A stretch of 64,000 nucleotides of DNA from a virus. Lineage: Duplodnaviria > Caudoviricetes. The stretch is from IMG/VR virus record IMGVR_UViG_3300046664_000044, positions 6 through 64,005 of that record. One strand, given 5' to 3'. The notes beneath the pieces are model-generated. The model saw only the letters and a program-made list of their open reading frames with translations. It was not told where the DNA came from and searched no databases. Within the stretch, counting starts at the first letter, position 1, and each line of letters begins with the position of its first letter. The translations under genes and the position numbers were made by a program. This document shows positions 8,472 through 44,802 of the stretch, piece after piece.

Positions 8472-8804
8472 TTACAACTCTTCTTCCTCGCCGCCAGCGC
8501 CGCCCTGGTCGCCTTCACCGGCACCAGCGCCGTCGCCTTCAGGCTTCGCGTCGGTCTTGCCCTGCTGCTTGCCCTGCTGCTTGCCGCCCTGCTGCTTGCC
8601 ACCCTTGCCGGTGTCGGTCTTCGGCGCTTCGATGGTCTGCACGGATTCGCTCTCGTCGCGTGGGGTGCGGATGGAGTCGGGCGAGCTGGCCTTCAGGTCT
8701 TCCAGTTCTTTCGCGGTGAAGTCGAAAGCTTTACCGGCAGGGATGCGCACGCGCTTACCTTCGCGGTACAGGATGATGGTGTTATTGGCGATACGTTTAG
8801 GCAT
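8472..8804 (-). CDS. Protein after major capsid gene (gpFI-like position) with low-complexity GKQQ repeats; ends EEEEL
   Basis: 110 aa, SD AAGGAG; synteny only. Confidence 0.6.
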   Translation of the reverse strand: MPKRIANNTIILYREGKRVRIPAGKAFDFTAKELEDLKASSPDSIRTPRDESESVQTIEAPKTDTGKGGKQQGGKQQGKQQGKTDAKPEGDGAGAGEGDQGGAGGEEEEL

Positions 8805-8830
8805 GGTGTTCTCCTTGGAGTCTATGAAGT

Positions 8831-8854
8831 AGGCCGAGGTGTTACCCCCGGCCT
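8831..8854 (-). terminator. GC stem-loop after major capsid gene (terminator or mRNA stabiliser)
   Basis: AGGCCGGGGGT-AAC-ACCTCGGCCT on the minus strand; weak U tail. Confidence 0.45.
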
Positions 8855-8865
8855 TGTGTCACTGC

Positions 8866-9927
8866 TTACTTGACCTTGATCTTGAAGGTCGCATTCGGTT
8901 CACGCGGAACCATCAGCGGCGCAGATTGGGTCAGCAGGTATTCCTGGCTTGGGTCTTCCTCGTCCCAATTCTTGAAGAACAGGTCGAGGGAGCGGAAGCC
9001 AGCGCGCTTGTCGCGGATCGCGCCGAAGCAGCGCACGCCGGACATCATATCGCTCACGCCTACCACGGTGTCGGTGTCGAGGTAGTAGGTTTCGGCCAGG
9101 GTGTCCGGGTCGATGTAGCGGGTGGTGTCCACGTAGCATTCGATCCGGCCTTGACCCGACACGCCGCTGATGGTGCCCATGTATTCGATGCTGTCTTCGT
9201 AGCCATCGGTCAGGGCGTTGATGCGGGTAACGGACGCTTGCACGCCGCCCACGGTCTTGTCCATCAGGTCTTTCAGGTCAACGCGCTGGGTGAACAGCTC
9301 CCAGGCATTGCCGCCGAAGATCAGGCGCGAGATGCGTGCGCCGGACAGCTCGTTCGACTGCTTGCGAGCGTCCTTGATGTCTTCCAGCGGATTCGCGGTG
9401 GTCTGATCCCAGGCGGCAGCGCCGGTCAGGGTGAAGGTCAGCGACGCATCGCGGCGGAAGTCCACCAGGGTTTCCGGGTAGTCTTCGCCTTTGATGATCA
9501 CGGCACCGTCGATGGTGGCGCGTGCAGCCAGATAGTTCCAGGTGTTTTGGGTCTTCTCTTTCTGCGTCTGGATCAGGTAGGCGATGACGGCATCGCGGCG
9601 CTGTTGCAGGGTCAGGGTGCCGCCATAGGCTTCACCGGCCAAGCGCTCCATGTGCATCGTCGGATCAACGATGTCTTTCTGCTTGGTGTAAGCAGGCTTG
9701 AAGCGCTCCGAGGTGTAGCCGGACAGGCGGTTCGGGCGACCGGACACGTTCGGCACGACGAACGGTGCCAGATAGCGCTTGTCTTCAAACACGCGGTCGA
9801 AGGAGATGTACTCCTGATCGAAGTTGATCTGCTGTTTGTAGAACTCGGTCAGCCAGAAAGCGGGTGCGACCTTCACGCGGCGCGATACGCCTTGGAGGGT
9901 CATCAGATCGTACAGGTCTGCGGCCAT
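8866..9927 (-). CDS. Major capsid protein (lambda gpE family)
   Basis: 353 aa; FKPAYTKQK, TQSAPLMVP motifs; follows the decoration gene. Confidence 0.92.
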   Translation of the reverse strand: MAADLYDLMTLQGVSRRVKVAPAFWLTEFYKQQINFDQEYISFDRVFEDKRYLAPFVVPNVSGRPNRLSGYTSERFKPAYTKQKDIVDPTMHMERLAGEAYGGTLTLQQRRDAVIAYLIQTQKEKTQNTWNYLAARATIDGAVIIKGEDYPETLVDFRRDASLTFTLTGAAAWDQTTANPLEDIKDARKQSNELSGARISRLIFGGNAWELFTQRVDLKDLMDKTVGGVQASVTRINALTDGYEDSIEYMGTISGVSGQGRIECYVDTTRYIDPDTLAETYYLDTDTVVGVSDMMSGVRCFGAIRDKRAGFRSLDLFFKNWDEEDPSQEYLLTQSAPLMVPREPNATFKIKVK

Positions 9928-9964
9928 GTTGTTGCTCCTTAATCAGTGTAAATGGTTTATACGG

Positions 9965-13746: not shown

Positions 13747-15813
13747 TCAGGCGAGAGCTTGGGCCATTGCTGCAAAGTCAGGCTCGGATTTTACACGGTT
13801 TCCATAGGGGTTCTCTTCGTCGGCTTTACGGACAAAATCGTTCTGATCCCACTCTGCCGCCCAGGTCGGCGGGTTCGACCAGTCCAACGATTCGACACGG
13901 ACGTAGGTGGATACGCACAGGCCAATGCAGTAATACAGCAAGTCCCATGCCTCGTTTCGGGCGTTCACTTTCAACCAGCCCTTCATTTCCCGCACCTCGG
14001 CGCACAATTCAGCGAACCACGAGTCGGGGAGCCACGCCGGGAAGCTGATCATGCCCTTGCCCGGTTCCAGGCTGTCCAGGCGACCGTTCAGGTCGTCCTT
14101 CAGCACGTTCGAGTTCAGCATCAGGACAGGGACATCACCCCGCGCCGAGGTCTTACTATCTTTGCGCTCCGAGTCGGGGAAGGACACGCGGGTGCGCGGC
14201 TGGCCGGGCTTACCGTCACCCTTCAGCAGCACGAAGCGATTGGCGGCCCCCTGGTTGCGCAGACGACGCCAGAACTCGTAGGCTTTGCCGGTCACGCCCG
14301 CTTTACCACCGGAGTCGCAGCCGGTGATCTTGATCATCATCTTCCGGCCACTGCCATCGGACAGCTCGTATTCGAGGTTCATCACCTGCTCGACCAGCAA
14401 GTCCCAATCCTCGGTGTACGTCGCCGGGCGCACCGGCAGCGGGTGGCCGTCTTCGTCCAGGCGTTGCGACTTCTTGATCTCGAATCGGTCGATCACTTCG
14501 ATGTCGAACGGTGCACCCGGCTTGATGCCGTTCACCTGCACGACGAACGCGCCCTTCTGCACGTCCACGGTGGCCGCCAGGAAGCGCACGTGTTCCGGCA
14601 CCGTGCGGATCAGGTGTTCCGGCACCTTGGTGGCGCGGGCCTTCAGCGTCTCCGGTACGCGCAGTTCTTGCTGGGCCTTGCTGATGTATGGCTCGCCCAG
14701 GTCGTTGTTGTAGAACTTCTTCAGCGCTTCTTCGGAGCCGGTGCGCTCGAACTCATCCATAGCGTCGAGGTACATATTGACCAGCTTCTTCCACGTCACG
14801 AACGCGGCGGCCACGCCACGGAGCCAGAACGACGCGATCAGCGACTTCATGCCTTGGCCGCAGCGCTTGCCGAACTTGTTGATGTACTCGCCGTCCTTGA
14901 TCCACATGCCCCACTCGTTCATCTCGAAGCGGTTGTCGCCGTGGATGTGGTGGCCGCAGTGCGGGCATTCCATGCGCGTGCTCTCGGCGGCTTCAGTGTT
15001 GGACATGCCCTCTTCGCGGCGGTACTTCAGCATCTCGAATTTGCCCTCGAAGTAGCGGTCGCATTCGGGGCAGGGCCAGTACCAGCGGCGGCGGTCGCCA
15101 CGGTTGTACAGGCCGATGATGCCCGGTGCCGGTGGCGCTTCGTGCGGCGTGCGGCAGATGTACTTGATGTCGGTGATCTCGCGGGACGGCGACGACTCCA
15201 CAAGGCACATGGCATTGGAGCCGAACGTGGTGGTTCGCTTCATCGCCAAGTCGAACGGCTCGCCGTCACCATCCACGTCATCCGGCATACGGTCACGGTC
15301 GGTCAAGACCACACGCGGGATCGGCTTACCTGCCAGCTCGGTCGGCGTCGGCCAGGAGATCGACAGCATCATGCCGTTCTTGAAGTGCTTGTCGAACGTG
15401 TTGTCGTTTGCGGAGCCTGGGATCATCATGTCGCCCACGGCCTCGCTGTCGCGGTTCAGGCGGTCGATACGGCGCATGGAGAAGTCGCGGGCCGCCGTGT
15501 TGGTCGGACAGACGATCATCATGTCCATCGGGTCGATCTTGACCGAGTAGAGCGTGGTGTTGATGATCAGGCCGTCCGTCTTCGCGCACTGCGCCGGGCC
15601 GACGAAGGCGATGCCGCTGAACTCCGTCGATGCGAACACGTCCATCGGCTCGCGCATGTAGGGCGCAGTGCTGTTGAGCCACGGGCCGACATACGCGCCG
15701 GGCGAGTTCACCTTGCGGTACTTCGCGGCGGCTTCCGATACGGTCATTCGTTCTGGCGGGCGCAGTTGATCCGCGCACGCGATCACGATCTCGCCAATTG
15801 ATTTAAAGCTCAT
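13747..15813 (-). CDS. terL: Terminase large subunit (lambda gpA family)
   Basis: GPAQCAKT Walker A, ESSP, CPEC/CPHC zinc motif, VDVQ and CDSGG nuclease motifs, NEAWDLLYY; start MSFKSIGE at 15813. Confidence 0.95.
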   Translation of the reverse strand: MSFKSIGEIVIACADQLRPPERMTVSEAAAKYRKVNSPGAYVGPWLNSTAPYMREPMDVFASTEFSGIAFVGPAQCAKTDGLIINTTLYSVKIDPMDMMIVCPTNTAARDFSMRRIDRLNRDSEAVGDMMIPGSANDNTFDKHFKNGMMLSISWPTPTELAGKPIPRVVLTDRDRMPDDVDGDGEPFDLAMKRTTTFGSNAMCLVESSPSREITDIKYICRTPHEAPPAPGIIGLYNRGDRRRWYWPCPECDRYFEGKFEMLKYRREEGMSNTEAAESTRMECPHCGHHIHGDNRFEMNEWGMWIKDGEYINKFGKRCGQGMKSLIASFWLRGVAAAFVTWKKLVNMYLDAMDEFERTGSEEALKKFYNNDLGEPYISKAQQELRVPETLKARATKVPEHLIRTVPEHVRFLAATVDVQKGAFVVQVNGIKPGAPFDIEVIDRFEIKKSQRLDEDGHPLPVRPATYTEDWDLLVEQVMNLEYELSDGSGRKMMIKITGCDSGGKAGVTGKAYEFWRRLRNQGAANRFVLLKGDGKPGQPRTRVSFPDSERKDSKTSARGDVPVLMLNSNVLKDDLNGRLDSLEPGKGMISFPAWLPDSWFAELCAEVREMKGWLKVNARNEAWDLLYYCIGLCVSTYVRVESLDWSNPPTWAAEWDQNDFVRKADEENPYGNRVKSEPDFAAMAQALA

Positions 15814-16444
15814 CGTCGTCTTCCTCAACTTGCACCGGGGCGTGCTTCACTTCGTACACCATCTCCGCTGCGGCGTCCTTCACTTCATCGTTCGTGGGCT
15901 TTTCCTCGAACTCCTTCAGCACCGTGCGGTAGGACTCATTAAGCAGGCCGTCGCCCAGGTTCTTCAGGATGCGGCGCTGCGTCTCGTTCAATTCCGACTG
16001 GCGATCCACGGCGTCCACGAACAGGCGCACGGAGTTCTTCACGATCTTCATCACGCCGCCGATGGCGCGCACAACGCGGTCGGTCGGCCACAGGTTGCCC
16101 TCGCGTTCCTCCACGTCTTGCTTGATCTTCTGCGCGGCCCAAAACTCTTTCGCAAGCATCTTCGGCAGATCGCCAGGGTTCATGCGGCGGATCGTTTCCT
16201 CCACGTTGAAGACCGGGCGCACAAGGTACGGGGCGGCCACGTCGATGCGCCAAATTTGCGTGCCGTTGCGGATGCCGGTCGGCGGGCATTGGTGCAGTTT
16301 CTCGACGAGGATGCGGTGATCCATGCGGAACAGCACGGAGAGCTGCGACAGGTTCGCGCCTTCGTACATGATCACGTTGCTGGTTTCGTCGGCCTGCGCG
16401 TTCTTCCGGCGAGTGATGTGTTCCTGTGGCTTAGTCATTGCCAA
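15803..16444 (-). CDS. terS: Terminase small subunit; ends DDDEL
   Basis: 213 aa directly upstream of and overlapping terL; N-terminal HTH-like region followed by coiled coil. Confidence 0.75.
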   Translation of the reverse strand: MAMTKPQEHITRRKNAQADETSNVIMYEGANLSQLSVLFRMDHRILVEKLHQCPPTGIRNGTQIWRIDVAAPYLVRPVFNVEETIRRMNPGDLPKMLAKEFWAAQKIKQDVEEREGNLWPTDRVVRAIGGVMKIVKNSVRLFVDAVDRQSELNETQRRILKNLGDGLLNESYRTVLKEFEEKPTNDEVKDAAAEMVYEVKHAPVQVEEDDDEL

Positions 16445-16715: not shown

Positions 16716-18398
16716 TTACAGAACTTCCTCGGCCAGCAGCGCTTCCACGCGAGTGTCCATGTCCAGGGCTTTGCCTTTCGCGTCCTTCAGCAGCTTCATC
16801 AGCTTGCGCCGCATCTTCCGCAGGATCGAGAACAGGAGCATCTGTGCGTCGTCCTTGGCCGTCAACGCTTCGATCACGGCTTCGTCCAGGGTGCCTTTGC
16901 AGACGATGTGGAAGACCGTCACGCGCTCGATCTGGCCTTGGCGATCCAGGCGGCCAACGAACTGCTGGTACAGCTCAAGGCTCCACGGGATGTCGAAGAA
17001 GACGACGATGTGGCCGCCGTCTTGCAGGTTCAGGCCGTGGCCGCCGCTGGCCGGGTGCATCGCCAGGATCGGTATCTGCCCCTTGTTCCACTTCTTGATG
17101 CACTTGCCGGTCTTGTCCATGAAGACGAGATTCGGGAAGTGCTTCTTCAGGCGCTCCTTCGACGAGCGATGGTGATAGCCCAGCAGGATCGGCTTGCCCT
17201 GTGCTTCCTCCACGATCTGCTTCAGCATGTCGATCTTGTGATCGTGGATGCGGTGAATCTTCAGCACCTTGGCGTGGTCGTCCTCTTCTTCCAGGCCCGG
17301 CTCCATCGTGGTGTTGTACAGCACGCCGGACGCCATTTGCAGCAGCTTGGCCGACAGCGCGGCGGCGGATTCGGCCACCACCTCGGTGCCGTCCGCGAGC
17401 GTCACCACCATGTCCTTCTCCATCTTGCGATAGAGGGTCATCTGCTCTTCGGTCATGTGTACCGGGCGCTCGATGTAGCGCGGCGGCACCATCGGCAGGT
17501 AGTCCTCGCGCTTCATCACCATGCAGATGTCGGAGATGCGCGCCAGGATGTCCTTCTCGCCGTCAGGGCGCAGCTCCCACTTGCGCGTGTACTTATTTTC
17601 GGTGAAGTATTTGCGCTGGTAGAAGGACAGCTCTTTGCCCAGGCGCTCGCCTTTGTCGAGCAGGTAAATCTGCGCGAACAGCGACATATAGCCTTCGGCG
17701 GCTGGCGTCGCGGTGAGGATGTGGCAGCGCGTGACGTTGCCGGGGTAATCGACCACGCTTTGCAGCGCCTTGAAGCGGTTGCTGTTGTGGTCTTTGAAGC
17801 CGCTGCTCTCGTCGATGATGATGCAGCGATACGGCCAGCCCTTGCCGCGCTTCAGGTAGAACTGCACCAGCCACTCGATCCAGTCGCGGCTGATGAAGTG
17901 CACCTGGGCCTTGTCCAGCGCCGCCTCCTGCCGCAGCTTCTCCTTCATACCAGCCATCCAGGCGCGGGCGTGCTTCTCGCGCTCGCTGGTGAACATCTGG
18001 CGCGACAGGCCATCGGCCATGCCGTCCTTGTAGGCTTTCTTCAGGCGCGGGTCGTCGTCGTCCACGTGCACGACGTTGTAGTTCATGGAGGCCAGATGCT
18101 CCCACTTGTCGAACTCGTTGGGCCACGTCGCGGTCGCCACGCGCAGCGGGCCGATCACCAGCACCTTCTCGCCGTCCTTCAGCTCTTCGTCGTCCAGCAG
18201 GCCGTGCACGAGGTCGGAGATCAGCGTGCCAGCACTGACAGTCTTGCCCAGGCCCATGTCGATGAAGAGGCCGCTGAACGGGTTGTCGCGCATGAAGGTG
18301 TACGCGGTTCCCTGGTAGCCGTGCATGTTCTCGCGCTTGAGCTTTACTTCGTCGAAGCGCGAGAGGATGTCGTACAAAAACGGATCGCTGTGACTCAT
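16716..18398 (-). CDS. SNF2-family (SF2) helicase
   Basis: DMGLGKT, DESS, LTATP, HPASGGHGLNLQ, Q..GRL.RQGQ motifs. Confidence 0.93.
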   Translation of the reverse strand: MSHSDPFLYDILSRFDEVKLKRENMHGYQGTAYTFMRDNPFSGLFIDMGLGKTVSAGTLISDLVHGLLDDEELKDGEKVLVIGPLRVATATWPNEFDKWEHLASMNYNVVHVDDDDPRLKKAYKDGMADGLSRQMFTSEREKHARAWMAGMKEKLRQEAALDKAQVHFISRDWIEWLVQFYLKRGKGWPYRCIIIDESSGFKDHNSNRFKALQSVVDYPGNVTRCHILTATPAAEGYMSLFAQIYLLDKGERLGKELSFYQRKYFTENKYTRKWELRPDGEKDILARISDICMVMKREDYLPMVPPRYIERPVHMTEEQMTLYRKMEKDMVVTLADGTEVVAESAAALSAKLLQMASGVLYNTTMEPGLEEEDDHAKVLKIHRIHDHKIDMLKQIVEEAQGKPILLGYHHRSSKERLKKHFPNLVFMDKTGKCIKKWNKGQIPILAMHPASGGHGLNLQDGGHIVVFFDIPWSLELYQQFVGRLDRQGQIERVTVFHIVCKGTLDEAVIEALTAKDDAQMLLFSILRKMRRKLMKLLKDAKGKALDMDTRVEALLAEEVL

Positions 18399-18685
18399 TT
18401 CAAAATCCTCATTGCTTCCTCAAGGTTGTCAGTCCAATAGATTTCGGCACCGTAGCGGCGCATCTCTTTGTGCTTCGAGAGCTGCTTCGGCTTCGGCTTC
18501 TCTCCGAACTTCTTCAGCTCGATGAAGATCACGCGCCCGCGCCGGATGAAGATGCGATCCGGCACGCCGGTCTGACCTGGGCAGATGAACTTCCCTTCCC
18601 ACCAGCCGCGCTTGTGCGCGTATGCGATCACCGCTTCCTCAAGGCTCACCTCAAGGTCGCGGCGCATGTTAGGCAGTGGCAGCAT
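18395..18685 (-). CDS. VRR-NUC domain nuclease (96 aa)
   Basis: GQTGVPDRIF...FIELK..G.KP...Q motif; start reassigned to the ATG at 18685 with SD GGAGG. Confidence 0.88.
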   Translation of the reverse strand: MLPLPNMRRDLEVSLEEAVIAYAHKRGWWEGKFICPGQTGVPDRIFIRRGRVIFIELKKFGEKPKPKQLSKHKEMRRYGAEIYWTDNLEEAMRILK

Positions 18686-20864: not shown

Positions 20865-20935
20865 TGATGTGTCCTTAAACGAGAACAGGCCCACGGGCTG
20901 TTACGCACGCGGGCCTGCGGTACTACATGGAGGTA

Positions 20936-33599: not shown

Positions 33600-33612
33600 G
33601 GAGAACACACGA

Positions 33613-34507: not shown

Positions 34508-34516
34508 AAACGATCC

Positions 34517-34726
34517 ATGGCACGGACTTCCCTCATCAACCGCCCGGCCACGGAGATGCGCGTCGCAAACTACGACCGCTTCGCCGTGCGTGTAAAGGGC
34601 GAACTCATTACCGCTATCGACTCCTGCCCGTCGTACATGGTCGGAACCGAAGCACAGAAGGACGCCATCGTGGCGCTGGATGCCGCGATGAACAAGATCA
34701 ACGCATTGTGGAATAAGGAGCGCTAG
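34517..34726 (+). CDS. Hypothetical protein (69 aa)
   Basis: In operon. Confidence 0.6.
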   Translation: MARTSLINRPATEMRVANYDRFAVRVKGELITAIDSCPSYMVGTEAQKDAIVALDAAMNKINALWNKER

Positions 34727-34729
34727 AGC

Positions 34730-35653: not shown

Positions 35654-36275
35654 GCTCGATCCCTTCTATGCGCAGCTCACCGCGCTCTCCGTGCAGATCA
35701 GCGAGACGGAGCGCATGGCCGAGAGCCTGGGCCTGGGCAACAGCGTCGAGAAGCTGAAGGACGCACGCGCAATGGTCAACAGCATGGCGAACAAGGTCAT
35801 GACGAAGATCGAGGCCGAGCACGTGGCCGGGCTGATGAACCGCGACCAGATGCCGAGGCATAAGGAGTGCTCGATGTCGTGCGCCCAGGCCGTCGAGTAT
35901 GGCGTGTGGCCGCAGAATGAGTGCTACCCGAAATGCGTGTGGCTCGAAAAGCACCACGAGAGCGCCAAGCTGCACACGGGCGGCATCGTCCCGCCGTCGT
36001 CGCAGGTGCCTCGCGTGTTGAGCGGCGGTTGCAGCGGCGCATACGACCCGCGCCTGTCGCCGTCGCAGAACATGGCCGCGTTGCAGCAAGGCTCACTGCT
36101 CGACGAGCTGGCGGCCACCGGCTTGCAGGTATTCGTGATCGACGAGAACACGGACTTCAGCAAATTGCCGGTGCCGGGCGCTGGCGTAGAATCCCAAGAA
36201 TCCCAAGAATCCCCACAACCCGATCAACAACAAGAAGGAGCAAACGATGGAAATCCAAGTGCGCCGGAAGTATAA
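35646..36275 (+). CDS. Hypothetical protein (209 aa)
   Basis: ATGA-type overlap; contains LHTGGIV motif and ESQ repeats. Confidence 0.65.
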   Translation: MNKLDPFYAQLTALSVQISETERMAESLGLGNSVEKLKDARAMVNSMANKVMTKIEAEHVAGLMNRDQMPRHKECSMSCAQAVEYGVWPQNECYPKCVWLEKHHESAKLHTGGIVPPSSQVPRVLSGGCSGAYDPRLSPSQNMAALQQGSLLDELAATGLQVFVIDENTDFSKLPVPGAGVESQESQESPQPDQQQEGANDGNPSAPEV

Positions 36276-36486
36276 GCCGGACTTTATCAAGGCAGTGCAT
36301 GACGGCCTCGCCGCCGACAAGCGCGACACCAGCGCGGTCGCCGTCAGCACCACGGCCAAGCTGCTGTACACGAACACCGTGCTGCCGCAGAAGATCGGCG
36401 GCAAGATGCTGATCGCGGAGAACCCGCACCACCTGGGCGCGAACGTTGCGACCATCCACGAAACCATTGCGCGATTGGGACTCTAG
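36247..36486 (+). CDS. Hypothetical protein (79 aa)
   Basis: SD AAGGAG. Confidence 0.68.
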   Translation: MEIQVRRKYKPDFIKAVHDGLAADKRDTSAVAVSTTAKLLYTNTVLPQKIGGKMLIAENPHHLGANVATIHETIARLGL

Positions 36487-36488
36487 CC

Positions 36489-37004
36489 ATGCCACATCCT
36501 GACGAACAAGCCAAAGTCATCATGCCGACGCTGCAAGAGATCGCGGAGCGCAACGGCTTCACCTACCCGGTGCCGCGCTTCCTCGCACAGATGCCAGCAC
36601 AGAAGGACGTGCCACCCGCACCGAAGCCACGCGATCTGCCGCCGCCACCGAAGCCCGCAGAGCCGAGGGTGGTGCCGGTGCGCCTGGACGCGATGGCGAT
36701 GATGAACCACACGGCCAGCGTGGACGACTTGCTGCGCTCGGTGAGCCGCATGGACATCATCGAAGGCCGCGTGAACATCGCAGACACGGTTGCACAGATT
36801 GCCGCGATGACGGACGCCCAGGCCCAGGCCAAAGCGTTCGCCATGATGGAGGCGCTGTGCGACTTCAACCTTGCCGAGCAAATGACCGTGGTTGCCCGGC
36901 GCAAGAGCCGCGAGGGTCAGTTCACCATGAGCAAAGCGCTGACCACGCTCGCACGAGAAATCAACGAACAGGCCGAGGCCGCACTGAAGGAGGCACAGAA
37001 ATGA
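36489..37004 (+). CDS. Hypothetical Pro-rich protein (171 aa)
   Basis: In operon. Confidence 0.68.
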   Translation: MPHPDEQAKVIMPTLQEIAERNGFTYPVPRFLAQMPAQKDVPPAPKPRDLPPPPKPAEPRVVPVRLDAMAMMNHTASVDDLLRSVSRMDIIEGRVNIADTVAQIAAMTDAQAQAKAFAMMEALCDFNLAEQMTVVARRKSREGQFTMSKALTTLAREINEQAEAALKEAQK

Positions 37005-37531
37005 ATCAAGCTGTTAAATGGGAAGACGCGCTGAAGATCACCGAAACGAAGAACGTCGAGGATGCTCTGCACGCCTTCAAGGATAGCCCCAGCGAAGACA
37101 ACGCGGTCGGGCTGGCGCAGTACATCATCGAGACGTATTTGCAGCAGGAAGCCGACCGCACGACCCTGATGCTGCAAGACGAGCTGCGCGTCCAGCAGGC
37201 CGCCGATCTGCACGACGACCGCGCAGAGCCGATCCCGCTGGCGCAGGAGCGCAAGAAGCAGCCGTGGGCGAGCAGCTTCCAGTCCTTGCTCACGGATGGC
37301 CGCCGCTTCCGCATCCTGGCCTGCGGCTTGATGCTGGCCGCCCGGCGCGACGACAACCACAGCGAGGTGGACGAGATGATCGCCAAGATCGACAAGGCCG
37401 TCGATGAAATCATCGGTGACGATGACGTGCCTGACCTGACGCTGATCCGCCGCGTGGCCGACCAGCTCTATGCCCGTGGACTCTTGATGGAGGTCGAAGA
37501 TGAACCGCACGACGACAAAGCCGCTGGTTGA
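37001..37531 (+). CDS. Hypothetical protein (176 aa)
   Basis: SD AAGGAGG; ATGA overlap; start reassigned. Confidence 0.72.
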   Translation: MNQAVKWEDALKITETKNVEDALHAFKDSPSEDNAVGLAQYIIETYLQQEADRTTLMLQDELRVQQAADLHDDRAEPIPLAQERKKQPWASSFQSLLTDGRRFRILACGLMLAARRDDNHSEVDEMIAKIDKAVDEIIGDDDVPDLTLIRRVADQLYARGLLMEVEDEPHDDKAAG

Positions 37532-37994
37532 CTGCTACCGGGTCGTGCGCATCATTGGCTCGACCCGTATGCACGCGCTGTGGGAAAAGGAGGACAAGAC
37601 CATGTGCGGTCACGTCCAGGCGCTCGACGCCGAATCGGCCAAGGGCTACAGCGTGAGCTGCGGCGATTGCCAGAAGGCGTTGAAGAAGGAGCGCCAGCGT
37701 CGCAGCGCTGAAGGTGTGGTGCGCGGTGAAGAACGCCGCCTCGCTGCACACTTCCGCGCCGAGAGCGAACCGCAGCCGCTCGGCCAAGCCGAACGTCACG
37801 CGCTCACGCTGGCCCGCAATCTGTTGAAGGCGTCGGTGATGAACATGCCCATGTTCGGCAAGACCGTGAGCGCGTGCACGTTCTGCCTCGCCGTGAAGCA
37901 GGAAGAGAACGTGGTCGGCCAGTACGAGCACGAAAAGGACTGCCCGGTGATCCTGGCCGAGCAGGTGATCGAAAACTACGGAGATCGAGAATGA
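37500..37994 (+). CDS. Hypothetical protein with Cys/His zinc-finger-like motifs (164 aa)
   Basis: H..W....TMCG...SCGDC and CTFC...HEKDCP. Confidence 0.7.
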   Translation: MNRTTTKPLVDCYRVVRIIGSTRMHALWEKEDKTMCGHVQALDAESAKGYSVSCGDCQKALKKERQRRSAEGVVRGEERRLAAHFRAESEPQPLGQAERHALTLARNLLKASVMNMPMFGKTVSACTFCLAVKQEENVVGQYEHEKDCPVILAEQVIENYGDRE

Positions 37995-38335
37995 TCGCTC
38001 AACATCCAGGCGTCGCGCTGCCCTTTATGATCGTTCACGGCCTCGAAGAGTGGAACGAGATTCCGCCGATGACCGACCCGCTGGGTAAGCACTGGCGGCA
38101 ACCGGCAGACATTCGCCATGCCCCGATGGATGGCGAGCATGTGCTGCTCACGAAATCGCAGATCGACGCACTGCCGGAATATTCGAGCAGCTATCCGTCC
38201 GGCTGCTACGACGGCAAGTGCTGGAAGCGCGAAGGTGAAGACTTCTGGTGGCTGTGCTGGTACTACCCTAGCCCGAAGCCGAACACCATCAGCATCGGCT
38301 CACGCATCATTATCGAAAAGGAGAAGAACAAATGA
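37991..38335 (+). CDS. Hypothetical protein (114 aa)
   Basis: ATGA overlap; L.EYS.SYPSG.Y.GK.WKR motif. Confidence 0.68.
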   Translation: MIAQHPGVALPFMIVHGLEEWNEIPPMTDPLGKHWRQPADIRHAPMDGEHVLLTKSQIDALPEYSSSYPSGCYDGKCWKREGEDFWWLCWYYPSPKPNTISIGSRIIIEKEKNK

Positions 38336-38967
38336 TTGGATACCTGCTGTCCCGCCCACGCATCCGCGACTGGATCATCAACCGCGCTATGCGCACGCCC
38401 GACGACCCGATCTACGCGGGCGACAACAGCGGTCGTGTGTACATGGCGCGCTACTGGCTGTTCAACCCGCTGACCAAGAAGGATGACGGTGAATGGGTAC
38501 GCAAGTATCCACTGCTGCCGTTCTCGATCCGCGTCCACAATATCCTGCTGCCGGACGCCGACCGCCACCTGCACGACCACCCGTTCAACGCACGCACGTG
38601 GATCATGGTCGGCGGCTACGACGAGCTGCGCGCCGAGGAACGCGACTTCTTCTACGACAGCCAGAAGTACCACATGGATCAGATCGTGGACATCCGCGAC
38701 TACTACGACAACGACCAGTACGTCGGCGTGCAGTACGAGCGGCACGAAGGCGACACGACCACGCTGTCGTTCGAGCGCTATCACAAGATCACGCGCATCC
38801 ACCATCACGACAATCCGGTCGGCCCTGGTGCCTGGACGTTCTTCTGCTTCGGCGGCTACAAGGGCGCGTGGGGCTTCCTCGTCAACGAGGTTAAGATGCT
38901 GCACCGCGAGTACATCGAGAAGTTCAAGCGCACCGTGTCCAAAGCACCGAACATCGCGGAGAAGTAA
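38332..38967 (+). CDS. Cupin-fold protein
   Basis: RVH.ILLPD.DRHLHDHPF...GGYDE...YHKI...WTFF motif pair. Confidence 0.65.
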   Translation: MIGYLLSRPRIRDWIINRAMRTPDDPIYAGDNSGRVYMARYWLFNPLTKKDDGEWVRKYPLLPFSIRVHNILLPDADRHLHDHPFNARTWIMVGGYDELRAEERDFFYDSQKYHMDQIVDIRDYYDNDQYVGVQYERHEGDTTTLSFERYHKITRIHHHDNPVGPGAWTFFCFGGYKGAWGFLVNEVKMLHREYIEKFKRTVSKAPNIAEK

Positions 38968-38970
38968 CGT

Positions 38971-39303
38971 ATGCAGCGGAAGACTGACCGGGGTGCAGGC
39001 AAGGTCATGGCCGACATCATCGAGCTGATGAAGTCGCGCCGGTTCCGTGTGGTGGGCTGCACCCAAAAAGATATTGCCGACGAGCTGGGGTGCTCGGTCG
39101 GTACAGTGAGCCGCTACCTCAAGGTGATGCTGGCCGAGAGGAAGGTTCACTACCACGGCAGTGCGAAGTGGAAGAACGGCGTCGTCAGCGGCGCTACCTA
39201 TAAACACGGGCCTGATCCGAATCAACCGCCACCGCCGCCTGTGCGGCCACGGCGCGAGTACAAGGATATCCCCCTGGCCTTCTTTGGAGTGAAAACGAAA
39301 TGA
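38971..39303 (+). CDS. Winged-HTH DNA-binding protein
   Basis: TQKDIADELGCSVGTVSRYLKVM. Confidence 0.75.
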   Translation: MQRKTDRGAGKVMADIIELMKSRRFRVVGCTQKDIADELGCSVGTVSRYLKVMLAERKVHYHGSAKWKNGVVSGATYKHGPDPNQPPPPPVRPRREYKDIPLAFFGVKTK

Positions 39304-39593
39304 GTGAATTCACAGCATGGCTCCCCGGCACTGGCGATCTGCCAGCACACGCCGGGCCTTATCAGTGCCGCATCGCTTGGCCCTACGGGAAGACGGAGAA
39401 CGAGCCGCCGTCGCACTTCCGCTGGTTCGACAAGGCGCTGGGCTGGTCGCATCCGTTGGAGTACGACCCGGACTTGGACGACGAGATCAAGCGCCCGCCC
39501 GCCGACCAGTTCTTCGGCGGCATGGGGGAAGAGGCGCTGTTCCGCGAGCGTTTCGACTGGCGCGGCTACACCACGGATCAGGAAGAGCTGTAA
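39300..39593 (+). CDS. Hypothetical protein (97 aa); ends DQEEL
   Basis: ATGA overlap. Confidence 0.7.
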   Translation: MSEFTAWLPGTGDLPAHAGPYQCRIAWPYGKTENEPPSHFRWFDKALGWSHPLEYDPDLDDEIKRPPADQFFGGMGEEALFRERFDWRGYTTDQEEL

Positions 39594-39603
39594 TGTAAAT
39601 GTG

Positions 39604-39632
39604 TTGACAGGGAAAAACCCTGTAGCTATACT
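39604..39632 (+). promoter_or_regulatory. Near-consensus sigma70 promoter containing the operator (39607..39623)
   Basis: TTGACA-GGGAAAAACCCTGTAGC-TATACT. Confidence 0.9.
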
Positions 39633-39663
39633 GACATAACTCAACTAAGTAAGGAAGGAAATC

Positions 39664-40134
39664 ATGGCAAAAGAGAAAAGCATCAACGGGTTGGCGAACA
39701 TCGGCCTGCTGGTGGCCGGTGCCGCGCTCCGCGCTGCTCCACCGAAGCCGAAGGAGGCCGACGTGAAGGCGGCCATCATCAAGAAGACGGTCGGCGCGAT
39801 GCCCAATCACCTCGACCCGACCAGCCCGCGCACGGTGGACGCTGTGCAGCGGATCGTGACCGCCGCAGTGCGTGAAGCGTTCAACGCCGGTCACGCGAAC
39901 GCCCTGGATCAGAACCACATGGTCGAAGAGCTGCTGAAGCAGCAGTACAAGACCCGCACGGAGCTGACGCTGCCGGTGGCCGCCATGGCGATCATGGAGC
40001 AGTCGGGCATGTCGTCCCTGCTGCTCGATCTGGACGCCGTGGCGACCGTCAACGACCGCTGCCGCGTGGAGATGATCCCCGATGGTAACTACATGCGCTT
40101 CGATCTGCGCGTGAAAGGAGACGACCGTGGTTAA
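39664..40134 (+). CDS. Hypothetical protein (156 aa)
   Basis: First gene after the promoter; SD AAGGAAGG. Confidence 0.75.
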   Translation: MAKEKSINGLANIGLLVAGAALRAAPPKPKEADVKAAIIKKTVGAMPNHLDPTSPRTVDAVQRIVTAAVREAFNAGHANALDQNHMVEELLKQQYKTRTELTLPVAAMAIMEQSGMSSLLLDLDAVATVNDRCRVEMIPDGNYMRFDLRVKGDDRG

Positions 40135-40198
40135 GTGCTCGAAGAAGTGCGAACACTGCCGCAAGATGGGGAACTGCCCGAAGGAGAAGCGGCCATGA
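40127..40198 (+). CDS. Putative 23-aa Cys4 microprotein MVKCSKKCEHCRKMGNCPKEKRP
   Basis: GTG with SD AAAGGAG; overlaps the upstream stop and makes an ATGA junction with the next gene. Confidence 0.5.
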   Translation: MVKCSKKCEHCRKMGNCPKEKRP

Positions 40199-40374
40199 CC
40201 GGCGCGATCCTGGGCTACATCATCGAGCCGAAGAACGGCGGGGCGATCTATCTGACGTTCAAGAAAGAGGTGGCCGAGAAGCGCACCCGCGCTGGCGACA
40301 TCGTGACCCCGTACACGAGCCGCAACCCGGACATCCATCATCCACCGCAGGCCAGCGAAGAAGAGGAACTGTAA
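40195..40374 (+). CDS. Hypothetical protein (59 aa); ends EEEEL
   Basis: SD AAGGAG; start reassigned. Confidence 0.68.
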   Translation: MTGAILGYIIEPKNGGAIYLTFKKEVAEKRTRAGDIVTPYTSRNPDIHHPPQASEEEEL

Positions 40375-41345
40375 TGGCTAAGTTGAAGGGAATCAAAGCA
40401 GCAATGCCGTTTGCCATTGGCGCGGCGCTGCATACGTGGTGCGGGAAGGCCGTGAAGAACCCGGAGAAGGTATCCGAGTTGATCGCGGGCTTCAAGCACA
40501 TCGAGCCGGGCGCGGACGCCTGGATCAGCTACGGGCTTGTCGAGCCGTTCGAGGAAGGCAGCTTCGTGCACAGCCTGGACGGCCTCGCCCACCTGATGTT
40601 CATGAAGTTCAGCGAGAAGATTCTGCCGGGCGCTGTGCGTGACAAGGAGCTGGCGAAGCGCCTGAAGGAGCTGTTCGACAAGACCGGGCGTGCGCCGACC
40701 AAGGTGGAGTACGCACAGACCCGCGACGAAGCGGAAGCCTACCTGCTGCCGAAAGCCTTTGTGCGCGACACGATCATTCCGATCCTCGTGTACAAGGACA
40801 AGATCATCTTCTGCACCACCAGCGCGAAGAAGATGGAGCAGGCGAACTCGGTCTTGACCCAGCTCGCCCAGGCCCGCAAGGTCGAATACGATCCGCACTA
40901 CATGGACGGCGAGCACATCAACTTCCACATGACCGAGCTGGCGAAGTCGGGCGTGATCCACTTCGACGACGAAGACAGCGCCTACCGCTTCGACGCTGGC
41001 AAGTCCGGCGTGTTCAGGCGCGACGGCGAGCAGAAGGCCGTGGCCCGTATCAAGGATCGTGACCTGTCGCACGCGGAAGTGCAGAAGCTCTTCGACAGCG
41101 GCTACGAGGCCACGGAGATCGGCATGTCGATGTACGACCAGACCGAAGGCAAGGACAGCGCGCAGTTCACGCTGACCGAGAAGTGGGTCATCAAGGGCAT
41201 CAAGCTGGCCGACAAGGACGAGCTGCGCACGCACGCCGACGCCCACGCGACCTACTGGCTCTACGCCCGCTACATCGGCATGATCGTCGATCTGCTCCAA
41301 GAAGCCCTGGCTGAAGCCAAGCCGGACGGCGACGACGAGCTGTAA
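40374..41345 (+). CDS. rdgC: Recombination-associated protein RdgC; ends GDDEL
   Basis: G.V.P.....VH, EKILP, ..RDE....LLPKAF, ..SAKK.E motifs; 323 aa. Confidence 0.85.
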   Translation: MAKLKGIKAAMPFAIGAALHTWCGKAVKNPEKVSELIAGFKHIEPGADAWISYGLVEPFEEGSFVHSLDGLAHLMFMKFSEKILPGAVRDKELAKRLKELFDKTGRAPTKVEYAQTRDEAEAYLLPKAFVRDTIIPILVYKDKIIFCTTSAKKMEQANSVLTQLAQARKVEYDPHYMDGEHINFHMTELAKSGVIHFDDEDSAYRFDAGKSGVFRRDGEQKAVARIKDRDLSHAEVQKLFDSGYEATEIGMSMYDQTEGKDSAQFTLTEKWVIKGIKLADKDELRTHADAHATYWLYARYIGMIVDLLQEALAEAKPDGDDEL

Positions 41346-41355
41346 GGAGACGGCC

Positions 41356-41586
41356 ATGCCACGCACTTCTGAAGCGACCCAAAAACTCGTCGCCAAAATC
41401 CGCGCCATGCGCATCGGTGCCTCGTTCTTCGTTGAAGGGGTGAGCCGGGATGATGTCGAGTTTCTGCGACGCCCGCTGAAGAAGCTGGGCGTGGGCGTCA
41501 AGTTTGTAGAAACCGAGTACGACGAAATCTATCTGTGCCACGGAGTCCGCATCTTCCGTGAAGAAGGGCCGTATGACGAACTCTGA
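41356..41586 (+). CDS. Hypothetical small DNA-binding-like protein (76 aa); ends PYDEL
   Basis: M.IG.SFFV ... GVRIFR pattern; SD AAGGAG. Confidence 0.68.
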   Translation: MPRTSEATQKLVAKIRAMRIGASFFVEGVSRDDVEFLRRPLKKLGVGVKFVETEYDEIYLCHGVRIFREEGPYDEL

Positions 41587-41797
41587 AGACGACGAAGAAA
41601 CTGAAGTCGAGCGCCTGCGCCGCCTTCTCAAGATCGCGCTGAACCACGCCGACAGCTACAAGGCCCACTTCCACCACCTGCAAGAAAGCATGTGGGCCGC
41701 AGAGCGAAAGGCGATCCAGCGCGGCAACCTGATCAAGAAGCAGCGCGCCAAGATCGGGGAGCTAGAGAAGCGCCTGGGCATCGACGACGAGTTGTAA
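41573..41797 (+). CDS. Coiled-coil protein (74 aa); ends IDDEL
   Basis: Overlaps the upstream gene end. Confidence 0.65.
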   Translation: MTNSEDDEETEVERLRRLLKIALNHADSYKAHFHHLQESMWAAERKAIQRGNLIKKQRAKIGELEKRLGIDDEL

Positions 41798-41802
41798 ATC
41801 AT

Positions 41803-41825
41803 TTGACACTGTTTTACCCTGTAAC
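41803..41825 (+). promoter_or_regulatory. Possible promoter with operator half-site CCCTGT
   Basis: TTGACA followed by CTGTTTTACCCTGTAAC; -10 element unclear. Confidence 0.35.
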
Positions 41826-41849
41826 GCCATTTACCTAAAGGAGATACAC

Positions 41850-42398
41850 ATGGCTACCACCCGCAAAACCGCAGCAAAGCAAACCCTGGCAACCGCAATC
41901 AGCACCGTGGCCGCCGCTGGCACGAAGCGCATGATCGACAAGCCAGTGACCCGCAAGCCCGCAGCGAAGGCCATCAAGACCGCAGCCAAGCCTGCTGTGA
42001 AGGTCGGCCAGCTCGCCAAGGATATCGCCAAGGAGCGCAACGAAGGTGCGGTGAAGAAGACCACGCCGCGCAAGGTGCAGGCCGAGCTGGACAAGGATCG
42101 TGCAGGCGGCGCATCGTACAAGAAGGCCGCAGCGCCGAAGGTGGACAAGCGCCGCGAGACGCCGCAGCTCAAGATCGGCAAGATTATCATCGAGCGCCCG
42201 GCCCGCAAGAAGTCCGACGCCTTCGACAGCACCCCGACCATCAGCGTGAAGAACGGCGCTGACACGATTAAGGTGTTCTCCAAGCTGCCGAAGGGCTTCT
42301 CCTGGCTGACCGACCTGGGCAGCTCGACCCGCGACACGCTGATGGTCTTCAACAAGCACGGCGTCCACATCGCGGACGTGCGCATCGAGCGTAAGTAA
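41850..42398 (+). CDS. Lys/Ala-rich histone-H1-like protein (182 aa)
   Basis: Repeated KPAAK/KTAAK/KKAAAPK in the N-terminal ~110 aa; SD AAGGAG. Confidence 0.65.
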   Translation: MATTRKTAAKQTLATAISTVAAAGTKRMIDKPVTRKPAAKAIKTAAKPAVKVGQLAKDIAKERNEGAVKKTTPRKVQAELDKDRAGGASYKKAAAPKVDKRRETPQLKIGKIIIERPARKKSDAFDSTPTISVKNGADTIKVFSKLPKGFSWLTDLGSSTRDTLMVFNKHGVHIADVRIERK

Positions 42399-42400
42399 TC

Positions 42401-42904
42401 ATGGCTCGGCACCTGCTTTTCCACCCGGAGAGCGACTGTCTGTTCGAGGTGTTCTGCGACGAAGAAGCGGATCAGGCCGAGCTGTTCGGGCAGTGCGATG
42501 TCGTTACCGGCGTCGCACGGTTCGAGCAACAATTCAAAAAGGAACAGAGCATGGCAAAGGAAGTCACCATCAAGAAGACCTTCACCCGCGACGAGCTGGT
42601 GGGCGTCATCCCGCGCACGGGCAAGCAGGCCGAGTACAGCCCGATCAACAGCGGCAACTACCTCACCGCCCGGCTGCTGGAAGCGGGCATTCCGGTGATC
42701 GGCTCCTTCGGCGTCCTGGGCGTCGAATGGGGCGTGCTCACCATCACCCACGACGACGGCCTGGATGGCGACGAATGGGAGTTCGCCTGGACGGGCGAGA
42801 AGATGCCGGAAGGCTGGCCGAAGCGCGGCACCGCGAACACGCTGGAAAAGCTGTCGATGGCGAAGCCGCTTAAACAACTCATCGCAGAAGAGGACGAACT
42901 GTGA
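42401..42904 (+). CDS. Hypothetical protein (167 aa); ends EEDEL
   Basis: LLFHPESDCLFEV N-terminal motif; YL..RL..AGIPV.G. Confidence 0.72.
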   Translation: MARHLLFHPESDCLFEVFCDEEADQAELFGQCDVVTGVARFEQQFKKEQSMAKEVTIKKTFTRDELVGVIPRTGKQAEYSPINSGNYLTARLLEAGIPVIGSFGVLGVEWGVLTITHDDGLDGDEWEFAWTGEKMPEGWPKRGTANTLEKLSMAKPLKQLIAEEDEL

Positions 42905-44097
42905 AGACCCTCCACAATCACTACACGCTGGCGACGAAAAAGCCGGGCGGCCCGATCATGATCAACATGGGCGCGGTCGAACTGATCGAGCCTGCACGCC
43001 ACGACGGCTTCACTCGCCTCGGCATCAAGGCGAAAGGCACCACGACCGGCGAATGGCTGATAGTGGATGTCGGCCACAACGATGCCCACTGCTTCATCGA
43101 ATACTTCAACAAACATTTCAAGGACAAGACCATGAACAAACTCTCCGACTTCATCGACTTCACCGCAGTGAGCGGCGCTGAAGTGAAGCTGTACGCCCAG
43201 GACATCATGCGCGCCGACATGCTGGCCGACCACGGCGAAGACGCGATGGACGAAGTGAAGCTCGTCGTCACGATGCAGAACGGTCGCACCCGTAGCTGGA
43301 TGCTCGGTGCCACGGTCGGCCAGCTCGTGCAGGACTGGCTGAACTCGCACAGCGAGGTGCTGGCCGCCGCACACGCCGCAGGCATCAGCACGTGGCTGTT
43401 CAAGGCACCCAGCGTCGATGCGGAAGTGAAGGCCGAGCGCGACCTGGGAGCCGAGGCCGGGCCGAAGCGCGCCGAGACGCCGGGCGACCTGTCGGAGAAC
43501 ATGCAGCAAGTGTACGGCACCGTGGAAGCGCGCCTGGGCGAGCTGTACCACATGGCCTACGGCGACCGCCTGTTCAACAGCCACGACTTCCGCAACGACT
43601 TCGTGAAGGCGCTGGTGCTGTCCATCGGCACCGTGGCCCGCGCTATCGCAATGGAGGAATGCTGCCGCCTGGAGTCGATGCTGACCGGCGACGACTCGAC
43701 CCCCGACGAAGACGCGGAAGCGGCCAAGTTCTTCGCGTCCAAGCTGGGCGTGCCGGTCGATGAAGTGCACGTCGTCCGCATCGACGCTGGCGAAGCGCCG
43801 GAAGGCATGATCGACGCGCTGCGCAAGATGATGAAGCGTGGCGCGACGCCGGACGGCCAGAAACTCACCGCGCATCACGTGCTGGGCAAGCAGGCGTTCG
43901 AGTGCCTGGGCGATCTGCTGTCGCACCGCGACGACTTCCTGCGCGCCATCCGCACGATGAAGGCCATCGCGGCGGCCAACGGCGAGCCGGGCGACGCGGA
44001 CTACTGGAACCATCAAGAGAAGGTGCTGATGCGCATGTGCGGCCAAGCCAAGTTCGCAGCCGACGCCCACAACGAAGCCGTGAAGGTGACATCGTGA
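42901..44097 (+). CDS. Hypothetical mosaic protein (398 aa)
   Basis: GTGA overlap; host-like codon usage. Confidence 0.72.
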   Translation: MKTLHNHYTLATKKPGGPIMINMGAVELIEPARHDGFTRLGIKAKGTTTGEWLIVDVGHNDAHCFIEYFNKHFKDKTMNKLSDFIDFTAVSGAEVKLYAQDIMRADMLADHGEDAMDEVKLVVTMQNGRTRSWMLGATVGQLVQDWLNSHSEVLAAAHAAGISTWLFKAPSVDAEVKAERDLGAEAGPKRAETPGDLSENMQQVYGTVEARLGELYHMAYGDRLFNSHDFRNDFVKALVLSIGTVARAIAMEECCRLESMLTGDDSTPDEDAEAAKFFASKLGVPVDEVHVVRIDAGEAPEGMIDALRKMMKRGATPDGQKLTAHHVLGKQAFECLGDLLSHRDDFLRAIRTMKAIAAANGEPGDADYWNHQEKVLMRMCGQAKFAADAHNEAVKVTS

Positions 44098-44510
44098 GCC
44101 GCATCGGTGATCGCTCGCACGCCGAGCGCTTAACCCGCGAAGCCGCCCAGGCCATCGGCATCAACGTGCCGGACGGTGCGCGCTGGGACACGCTTCTGGG
44201 CGGCCTTCAACTCGCGCCGACCACGCCGTATGCGAAGAACACGTTCGCGCCGCTGAACGACTTTGCGGACGCCTATCATGTCGAGACTGCGTTGCAGCTC
44301 TCGGTGCAGTACATGGCGAACGGCGGCGGCACGATCTTGCAGATGTCGCACAAGGACAAGACCGGCGCGATGTTCGAGGTGCTGCGGGATAACGACCCGG
44401 ACTACAACGCCCGCAAGCGCATGGAGCTGGCCGTCATCATGGCGAGCCTGCACCTGATGATCAACGGCGCGCAGAAGCGACGGGAGAGCGATCATGGACT
44501 GGCCGGATGA
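44094..44510 (+). CDS. Hypothetical protein (138 aa)
   Basis: GTGA overlap; start reassigned. Confidence 0.65.
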   Translation: MSRIGDRSHAERLTREAAQAIGINVPDGARWDTLLGGLQLAPTTPYAKNTFAPLNDFADAYHVETALQLSVQYMANGGGTILQMSHKDKTGAMFEVLRDNDPDYNARKRMELAVIMASLHLMINGAQKRRESDHGLAG

Positions 44511-44802
44511 ACTGCTCGACCAGCAACCGGCAGAAGAGCGCCGCCGCCAAGCCAAGATGGGGAAGAAGTTGAAAATACCTGCTGAACACGTGCTGGAAGT
44601 GACGAAGGGAGCGCCCTGCTACAAGGGGGTCGTGACCGCGATTGAGGTGGCCGGTGTGCAGGTGATCTTGATGGCCCGCACGAGTAGTGACCTGATGATC
44701 GCGCACCAGAAGATCACGAACTTCGCTGACTTCCGATTGGGTCTAGTCCACAAGGCGGGCATCATGGCGGCCAGGGACGTGAGCCTGGACGACGAGCTGT
44801 AA
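44494..44802 (+). CDS. Hypothetical protein (102 aa); ends LDDEL
   Basis: Last gene of the plus-strand arm; SD GGGAG. Confidence 0.68.
   Translation: MDWPDELLDQQPAEERRRQAKMGKKLKIPAEHVLEVTKGAPCYKGVVTAIEVAGVQVILMARTSSDLMIAHQKITNFADFRLGLVHKAGIMAARDVSLDDEL

Follow-up and report, generated by a model that had tools for sequence, protein, structure and literature searches.

An acidic, leucine-capped C terminus shared by a dozen unrelated proteins of a Chi-like phage

Twelve proteins encoded in a stretch of tailed-phage DNA end in the same short peptide, an aspartate or glutamate followed by glutamate and leucine ([DE]EL). The stretch, called the window throughout, comprises 64,000 nucleotides (positions 6 to 64,005 of IMG/VR record IMGVR_UViG_3300046664_000044). 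In nearly all of these tags, positions -2 to -5 are D or E. Selection acts on the peptide at the protein level, and the tag is not peculiar to the phage of the window but spans much of the family Casjensviridae. With a probability of about 0.55, the [DE]EL end is a shared docking tail with a common reader. An earlier note on this DNA, which drew attention to the tags, knew of no description of them. Likewise, a literature search, with subscription journals mostly outside its reach, brought up no paper describing such a tag across the genomes of Chi-like phages, but the principle is in print for phages T7 and T4. The tag system greatly enlarges a kind of system that is already known, and is not a new kind.

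Enrichment of the tag and level of selection

Gene calling with a self-trained codon log-odds model, applied in the same way to ten relatives, gives 71 genes in the window, and not the ~85 assumed earlier. All 12 [DE]EL ends of the earlier note are in the sequence, each at its stop codon, as are the near-variant ends of the primase (SEDL), the DUF2800 protein (TTDL), the 23007 protein (DDGL) and the helicase (EEVL). The rarity of such ends by chance, estimated roughly in that note, is borne out. Against the 12 observed, ~0.1 are expected (0.04 from composition; 0.14 from the internal tripeptide rate, binomial P ~4e-20), and when each protein is cut at a random internal point as a control, 0.10 such ends result on average and never more than 2 in 5000 trials. 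Leucine is the last residue of 19 of the 70 complete proteins, versus a Leu frequency of 7.5%. No [DE]EL end occurs among 754 spurious open reading frames, nor among 25 virion-module genes, a set from which the 8472 gene, tagged and located in the head module, was excluded. The claim that no capsid, portal, tail or lysis protein carries the tag holds for the virion-module genes, but with 8472 inside the head module the tag is not wholly outside morphogenesis genes.

Codons of the tags vary, as had been noticed, and match genome-wide usage, stops included (Leu: CTG 8, TTG 2, CTT 1, CTC 1; Glu: GAG 7, GAA 5). A close comparison is offered by G1, a 61-kb IMG/VR relative (85% identical) whose proteins are mostly 80-95% identical to those of the window. 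Over the final five codons of each of the 12 canonical tags, the two genomes differ by D/E swaps, by synonymous changes (TTG to CTG, GAC to GAT, GAG to GAA) or by changes upstream of the acidic run, and by nothing else; the near-variant DUF2800 tail shows a Thr-to-Ser change. The final Leu is retained in 17 of 17 window-G1 pairs, and two near-variants are more canonical in G1 (primase SEDL to DEEL, DUF2800 TTDL to TSEL). It is because of this codon use and these substitutions that selection is placed at the level of the protein.

The Shine-Dalgarno sequence of the next gene is not the explanation, in agreement with the earlier note, since only 4-5 of the 12 tags include it in their codons (23753, 33613, 40135 and 42401, with 8472 as a possible fifth). 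For the other seven tags, the next start is 10-70 nt off with its own Shine-Dalgarno, or the tag is followed by a promoter or terminator, or by nothing. As had been stated, no coupled start follows position 41797. A terminator-like hairpin follows position 44802.

Proteins carrying the tag

The 12 tagged proteins of the window are the following.

8472 to 8804, minus strand: 110-residue protein whose gene comes just after that of the major capsid protein, at the lambda-FI position; ends GGEEEEL
15803 to 16444, minus strand: putative small terminase TerS (DUF1441-like); ends EEDDDEL
20936 to 21655, minus strand: SSB, a protein that binds single-stranded DNA (ssDNA), of the T7 gp2.5/Enc34 type, PF10991; ends DDDDEL
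23753 to 23935, plus strand: small protein upstream of the primase; ends NKDEL
33613 to 33798, plus strand: 61-residue coiled-coil-like early protein; ends AKEEL, with GAGGA in the tag codons doubling as the Shine-Dalgarno of the next gene
39300 to 39593, plus strand: 97-residue early protein; ends DQEEL, followed by a promoter-like site and no coupled gene
40135 to 40374, plus strand: early protein of 59-79 residues (start uncertain); ends EEEEL
40374 to 41345, plus strand: RdgC-family protein (PF04381, 4.4e-25); ends GDDEL
41356 to 41586, plus strand: 76-residue protein, phrog_7200; ends PYDEL
41558 to 41797, plus strand: 79-residue protein; ends IDDEL
42401 to 42904, plus strand: 167-residue protein; ends EEDEL
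44494 to 44802, plus strand: 102-residue protein, last gene of the rightward early block; ends LDDEL

Four proteins with near-variant or degenerate ends, and two untagged proteins of importance for what follows, complete the set.

23935 to 26508, plus strand: primase (PrimPol, PriCT_2 and DUF5906); near-variant end SEDL
21690 to 22997, minus strand: DUF2800 nuclease-like protein; degenerate end TTDL
23007 to 23423, minus strand: 138-residue phrog_7721 protein; ends EDDGL
16716 to 18398, minus strand: SNF2-type helicase; near-variant end AEEVL
18669 to 20894, minus strand: family-B-like DNA polymerase (weak match); untagged, ends AATA
13747 to 15747, minus strand: lambda gpA-type large terminase TerL (PF05876, PF20454); untagged

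Pfam supports the earlier annotations of the SSB, RdgC, DUF2800, primase and SNF2 helicase proteins. The TerS label relies on a sub-threshold DUF1441 match and on location upstream of the gpA-type TerL gene; the 23753 protein, formerly called 'Cro-like', has no family match. The 8472 protein consists of an N-terminal DUF7443 domain (PF24227, 4.6e-19), a long Gly/Gln/Lys linker and the tip. Acidic ends without a hydrophobic cap are found in the same genome in the 34730 (VEDE) and 30223 (DIEE) proteins.

Conservation among relatives

Ten annotated genomes of relatives were fetched whole, and ends of the form acidic-acidic-hydrophobic were counted, one residue before the tip being optional. The counts are listed below with those of further phages.

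Window: 12-15 ends, tip L
FoX4 (Xanthomonas): 8 ends, tip L
MA11 (Pectobacterium): 10-11 ends, tip L
AXY1: 10-15 ends, tip L
SS2019XI: 8 ends, DDL/EDL
AH2: 5-6 ends, tip L
Chi: 10 ends, DEV
Redjac: 8 ends, DEV and DDI
R22L: 3 ends, DDI and DDL
Salvo (Xylella): 2 ends, chance-like, no tip form
Bhz60 (Stenotrophomonas): 0-1 ends, chance-like, no tip form
A18P4: 8 ends, DEI or DDI
S-ESS1: [LFM]-I form
APSE-7: no such ends
T7: exactly two ends, gp2.5 (...DEDGDF) and gp4 (...NDTDF)

Conservation in orthologs, on which the earlier note had made its proposal depend, is found: the same families are tagged in 10 isolate genomes and in >30 IMG/VR loci, the pattern recurring in 32 loci around the SSB gene and in seven around RdgC. 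Families tagged throughout are the FI-position DUF7443 protein, TerS, SSB, DUF2800, primase, phrog_7721, RdgC and phrog_7200; the SNF2 helicase is often tagged. Among metagenome homologs, 102 of 107 SSBs end in L, as do 72 of 80 TerS proteins (52 of them in DEL). Conservation of the tip is very deep in the RdgC family, with L at the end of 128 of 150 cluster representatives, to ~27% identity.

The residues before the tip, and the tip itself, vary within the acidic-hydrophobic theme. Orthologs of the 8472 protein end in EDEL, DGDL, EEEL, NDDL, DEDL, DDDI, EDEV or DDEV, and TerS of Chi and Redjac in DDDEV. Primases end in DDEL, DDDL or EDEV in relatives other than G1. DUF2800 proteins of relatives end in ADEL, DDDL, FDDL, DDEV or DDDI, and in LLDD in the Salvo clade. 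Ends of SNF2 helicase orthologs include DDEL, LEEL and DLEL in some relatives with an L tip, and DDEE in the clade with V tips. For phrog_7200, ortholog ends are DDEL, DEEL and YDDL, with YDNDF in locus L103 and FDEL or WDEL in other loci. The best matches of the 42401 protein (or of its G1 ortholog) in distant loci end in ADDEF (L103) and DDEEL (L106). The counterpart of the 23753 protein in G1 ends in EEEDDL, an acidic L-tip kept at only 43-48% identity; homologs in more distant loci are untagged.

Co-variation of the last residue

The last residue is largely uniform within a genome. For 24 genomes or loci bearing three or more strict tags, the share of tags with the modal tip of their genome is 92.3%, versus 71.6% in shuffles, none of 10,000 being as high, in a statistic that relatedness among the genomes inflates. 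The tip is L in most lineages, V in Chi and Redjac, I in A18P4 and separately in R22L and L067, and F in L103 (IMGVR_UViG_3300028809_000014), where at least five proteins end with Phe (NDEDF, YDNDF, ADDEF, SDDDF and DDDSF). In L082 (IMGVR_UViG_3300009978_000001), TerS, SSB and DUF2800 end in ...EFDD, ...DFDD and ...DEFD.

On a tree of DUF2800 proteins, L is widespread and the V genomes form one clade (support 100/100), with A18P4 (tip I) as sister; R22L and L067, also with I, are placed elsewhere. The Salvo/Sano clade and L082 have no hydrophobic last residue. About five changes of tip state occur on this tree, each touching five to nine unrelated proteins together. The earlier note had supposed that many proteins address a single hub. 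The tag does behave like a commonly read address, because the tip is uniform per genome and changes on many proteins together, but no hub emerged.

In two contrasts, tip and tag status track phage lineage rather than host. MA11, from Pectobacterium, has L, as opposed to V in Chi and Redjac, whose hosts are also Enterobacterales. FoX4, from Xanthomonas, is tagged, whereas Salvo and Bhz60, from Xylella and Stenotrophomonas, are not. These contrasts, only two in number, favour a phage-encoded reader, because the tip follows the phage and not the host.

A probable shared docking tail

The tail would be a short portable docking peptide, made of an acidic run and one aliphatic residue bearing the free carboxylate. 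It is carried by the T7-type SSB and by about a dozen other proteins that would act on phage DNA in the cytoplasm, namely the primase, the nuclease and the helicase, RdgC, the putative small terminase, the packaging protein at the FI position, and small early proteins. One common binding site, probably a basic patch with a small hydrophobic pocket, would read all tails, and would gather the carriers, or hand them over, at replicating and packaging DNA, in the manner of the T7 and T4 tails. This reader would be single and phage-encoded.

A close precedent is T7, in which gp2.5 (the SSB) and gp4 (the helicase-primase) use their tails to dock on the gp5/thioredoxin polymerase and in the gp2.5 DNA groove. 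Acidic tails ending in Phe are documented for both proteins (PMC10359462, PMC12339929). The likeness extends to several features. The window encodes an SSB of the gp2.5 fold with a disordered acidic tail ending in a hydrophobic residue (DDDDEL); the acidic run and the hydrophobic residue stand at the extreme C terminus; and the primase has the same kind of tail as the SSB, with SEDL in the window, DEEL in G1 and DDEL, DDDL or EDEV elsewhere, matching the SSB tip of each genome. In contrast to T7, with its two tagged proteins, 12-16 are tagged here, some of them small early proteins or proteins of packaging and recombination. An aromatic tip in T7 stands against an aliphatic one here (L, with V or I in relatives). 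The polymerase is family-B-like and shows no recognisable domain for binding thioredoxin; many relatives have it tagged, and others have an unrelated polymerase in its place.

In T4, the tails of gp43, gp55 and gp33 bind the gp45 clamp (PMC2988020). There, as here, several unrelated proteins of different processes have a common C-terminal peptide, and flexible linkers precede some of the tips. The T4 system has one clamp as its hub, whereas no clamp gene is detectable here; the motif of the window is shorter and more acidic and has many more clients. Compared with T7 or T4, the tail is on four to six times as many proteins.

Two further systems can be compared. The tip of bacterial SSB (...DDDIPF in E. 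coli) is an interaction hub, read with its free carboxylate. It resembles the tag by its acidic run and hydrophobic C-terminal residue and by tying together many DNA-metabolism proteins, but the topology is inverted: in bacteria only SSB bears the tip and its partners bear pockets, whereas here the partners bear the tip. CAP-Gly domains read acidic ...EEY/F ends and PDZ domains read ...[DE]-x-[VLI]-COOH, so that a single domain recognises a C-terminal code of three to four residues on unrelated proteins. This is an analogy only, with no evolutionary link, and no domain of these kinds occurs among the 50 window proteins scanned against Pfam.

Several points weigh against a docking tail with a common reader. 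No reader has been found for the tails. Several tags are placed directly on predicted helices or coiled coils and not on flexible linkers. The independent changes of the tip are few (about five, counted on a midpoint-rooted tree of one gene that has long branches), and co-variation of the tip is partly phylogenetic inertia. In some genomes, one or two proteins deviate from the modal tip (M, I). Finally, the Salvo/Sano clade has no hydrophobic cap, yet its TerS ends acidic and its SSB keeps an acidic tail whose last residue, or one close to it, is hydrophobic. Because acidity is retained there without the cap, the roles of acidity and cap may be separable.

Candidate readers

SSB is a reasonable candidate. 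It is present as a T7-type protein in every genome examined, its fold matches those of Enc34 SSB and T7 gp2.5, and the groove of the related Enc34 protein accommodates such a tail; for these reasons, its ssDNA groove is among the best guesses for a reader. In crystals of Enc34 SSB, the acidic tail sits in the DNA groove of a neighbouring molecule (PMC5686142). The window protein matches the profile of Enc34 SSB (5odj) with E 8e-46. Its AlphaFold2 model, with a predicted local distance difference test (pLDDT) of 89.5, superposes on 5odj with a TM-score of 0.86 and matches T7 gp2.5 (1je5) with E 6e-5. In the full-length model the core is confident, but pLDDT stays at 44-57 along the tail and does not increase towards the tip; that no docked tip is seen is neutral evidence. 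When a complex of the SSB core (residues 1-205, 99-row alignment) and the TerS C terminus (its last 50 residues, 78-row alignment) was predicted, both runs, made without controls, had an ipSAE interface score of 0.00, which counts neither for nor against docking.

The SSB tail (20936-21060) has a feature of its own, as it carries the motif twice, an internal DDDDDL and the terminal DDDDEL, separated by a basic Ser/Lys/Arg linker. In the SSBs of AH2, Salvo and Bhz60, acidic blocks alternate with basic ones over an even greater length. Condensate-forming proteins typically have charges arranged in blocks of this kind.

Of the conserved families, just DUF7443 and phrog_7721 occur in step with the tag. 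A six-frame profile search detects both in Chi, FoX4 and AH2; in Salvo and Bhz60 it detects neither. Either would be a best guess for the reader, but both may be mere clients, because both are tagged themselves. Among the families, it is phrog_7721 whose tip most often departs from that of its genome, with M in FoX4, AXY1 and L055, I in Redjac and V in L056, which is a lead rather than a finding. The predicted fold of the window protein (23007) comprises an N-terminal helix, a disordered linker and a three-helix bundle (mean pLDDT 66), with no PDB match at E <= 0.001.

The slot of phrog_7721, between primase and DUF2800, is occupied by another protein of ~136-158 residues in the tagless Salvo/Sano-like loci L065, L066, L071, L072 and L075. 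It has no BLAST similarity to phrog_7721, and its ends are basic (GSKK, TKKK, SRKK, AKKK, SKKK), of opposite charge.

The phage polymerase, named as a possible hub in the earlier note, is weak in this role and unlikely as a universal hub, given that the tag-bearing relatives use two non-orthologous polymerases and that homologs of the window's enzyme are often tagged themselves (67 of 120 end in L, many after acidic runs). The first type, family-B-like, fills the polymerase slot in the window, FoX4, AH2 and AXY1. The second, unrelated, of ~680 residues and ending in YRKD, YKKD or CYQK, does so in MA11, SS2019XI, R22L, Chi, Redjac, Salvo and Bhz60. With a polymerase that gives a weak family-B match only, the window does not offer the kind of reader known from T7, a family-A enzyme bearing basic patches or a domain that binds thioredoxin. 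When conserved core proteins were screened for Lys/Arg columns that tagged genomes retain and Salvo and Bhz60 have lost, the type 2 polymerase came first (19/57), but the reverse control gave a larger value, 33, so that this comparison does not discriminate.

Sliding clamps are not apparent either: PF09116 and PF00712 have no six-frame match in the whole genome, and no clamp family occurs among the proteins scanned. The RdgC ring is rejected as a hub, as the AH2 lineage is tagged yet has no RdgC. TerL, the other hub named in the earlier note, is untagged in every genome examined and is a candidate as the natural partner of the TerS and FI-position tails.

Alternative explanations

Each tail might act in cis, as a DNA-mimicking, self-inhibiting segment with no common reader, the cap being a general constraint on protein ends (e.g. 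protection of acidic ends or efficient termination). Self-inhibiting tails of this kind are known for T7 gp2.5 and T4 gp32, and the tagged proteins of known family mostly bind DNA. The Salvo-clade TerS, moreover, retains an acidic end without a cap, and removal of the tail from Enc34 SSB alters its DNA selectivity, in a study that treats the SSB tail only (PMC5686142). Unrelated folds would not, however, be expected to need the same last residue or to switch it jointly, as in the V, I and F lineages, and the uncapped 34730 and 30223 proteins indicate that the cap is not required for termination. The FI-position protein, with its N-domain, long linker and tip, has the build of a tethered docking peptide. 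Action in cis is rather unlikely.

Less probable still, and by a clear step, is a stability signal read by a host or phage protease, either a degron timing the removal of early proteins or a protective end. C-terminal residues do govern degradation by ClpXP, FtsH and Tsp, and the tags are on non-virion, mostly early or middle proteins. In the known bacterial C-terminal degrons, however, non-polar ends favour degradation and acidic residues near the end protect from it, and the tags are not of the degron form, a non-polar end without adjacent acidic residues. SSB, primase and TerS are needed throughout infection, and the tip tracks phage lineage and not host, though host proteases are near-identical within a host order.

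A nucleotide-level by-product (Shine-Dalgarno or coupling, a recombination boundary or another DNA or RNA signal at gene ends) is largely refuted: GAGGA or AAGGA does lie in tag codons 6-9 nt before the next start in 23753, 33613, 40135 and 42401, and possibly in 8472, but seven tags have no coupled gene or a Shine-Dalgarno after the stop, Leu is left unexplained, tag codons vary like the rest of the genome, none of the 754 non-coding frames ends so, and tags persist where the flanking DNA of relatives is not alignable (short megablast matches, ~72%).

Implications of a possible common reader

It is tempting to extend the docking reading to a single phage-encoded reader (the SSB groove, phrog_7721 or DUF7443) of a code of three to five residues, which would join replication, recombination, regulatory and packaging proteins into one unit. 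The last residue, L, V, I or F, would then be an address separating co-infecting phages, and accessory genes would join by acquiring the tip. In this complete form, the proposal is speculative and probably goes too far.

If one site reads all tails, the Chi-like Casjensviridae, a large and common group, would coordinate replication, recombination and packaging by a simple peptide code, legible from any genome sequence. Small phage proteins of unknown function that carry the tip would belong to a DNA-metabolism network. The code would explain how new genes plug into that network, and by means of it the assembly for replication and packaging could be pulled down. The changes of the tip between L, V, I and F would be a natural experiment on the co-evolution of a hub and a dozen clients.

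Genome context

The IMG/VR record has 64,005 bases and is rated 100% complete, so that the window is nearly the whole record; its GC content is ~62%. One gene is split over the window ends (62320-63999, continuing at 3-758) and is intact in G1, where it encodes 568 residues. The record is therefore a circularly permuted complete genome. Megablast gives only short matches of ~72% identity, to Chi-like Salmonella phages, Burkholderia phage AH2, Xylella phage Salvo and Xanthomonas phage AhaSv; at the protein level, all relatives are in or near the Casjensviridae. The head module is lambda-like, with, in order, gpA-type TerL, gpW, a lambda-type portal, an S49 protease, a gpD-like decoration protein, the capsid protein and then the 8472 protein.

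Nearly all of the ~25 genes in the rightward early block (33246-45200) are without a Pfam family, apart from RdgC, a DUF7609 protein and one protein resembling a helix-turn-helix or sigma-region-4 domain (38971-39303).

A 15-base inverted repeat, CAGGGAAAAACCCTG, occurs in five exact copies, all intergenic, at 16692, 28700, 32321, 32367 and 39608, and with one mismatch at 26790. Allowing at most one mismatch, it has 11 matches versus 2.0 expected, a number reached in 0 of 100 shuffles. The repeat overlaps a TTGACA -35-like hexamer, e.g. TTGACAGGGAAAAACCCTGTAGCTATACT after gene 39300, and faces either strand. The copies look like a set of phage promoters with a common operator-like spacer.

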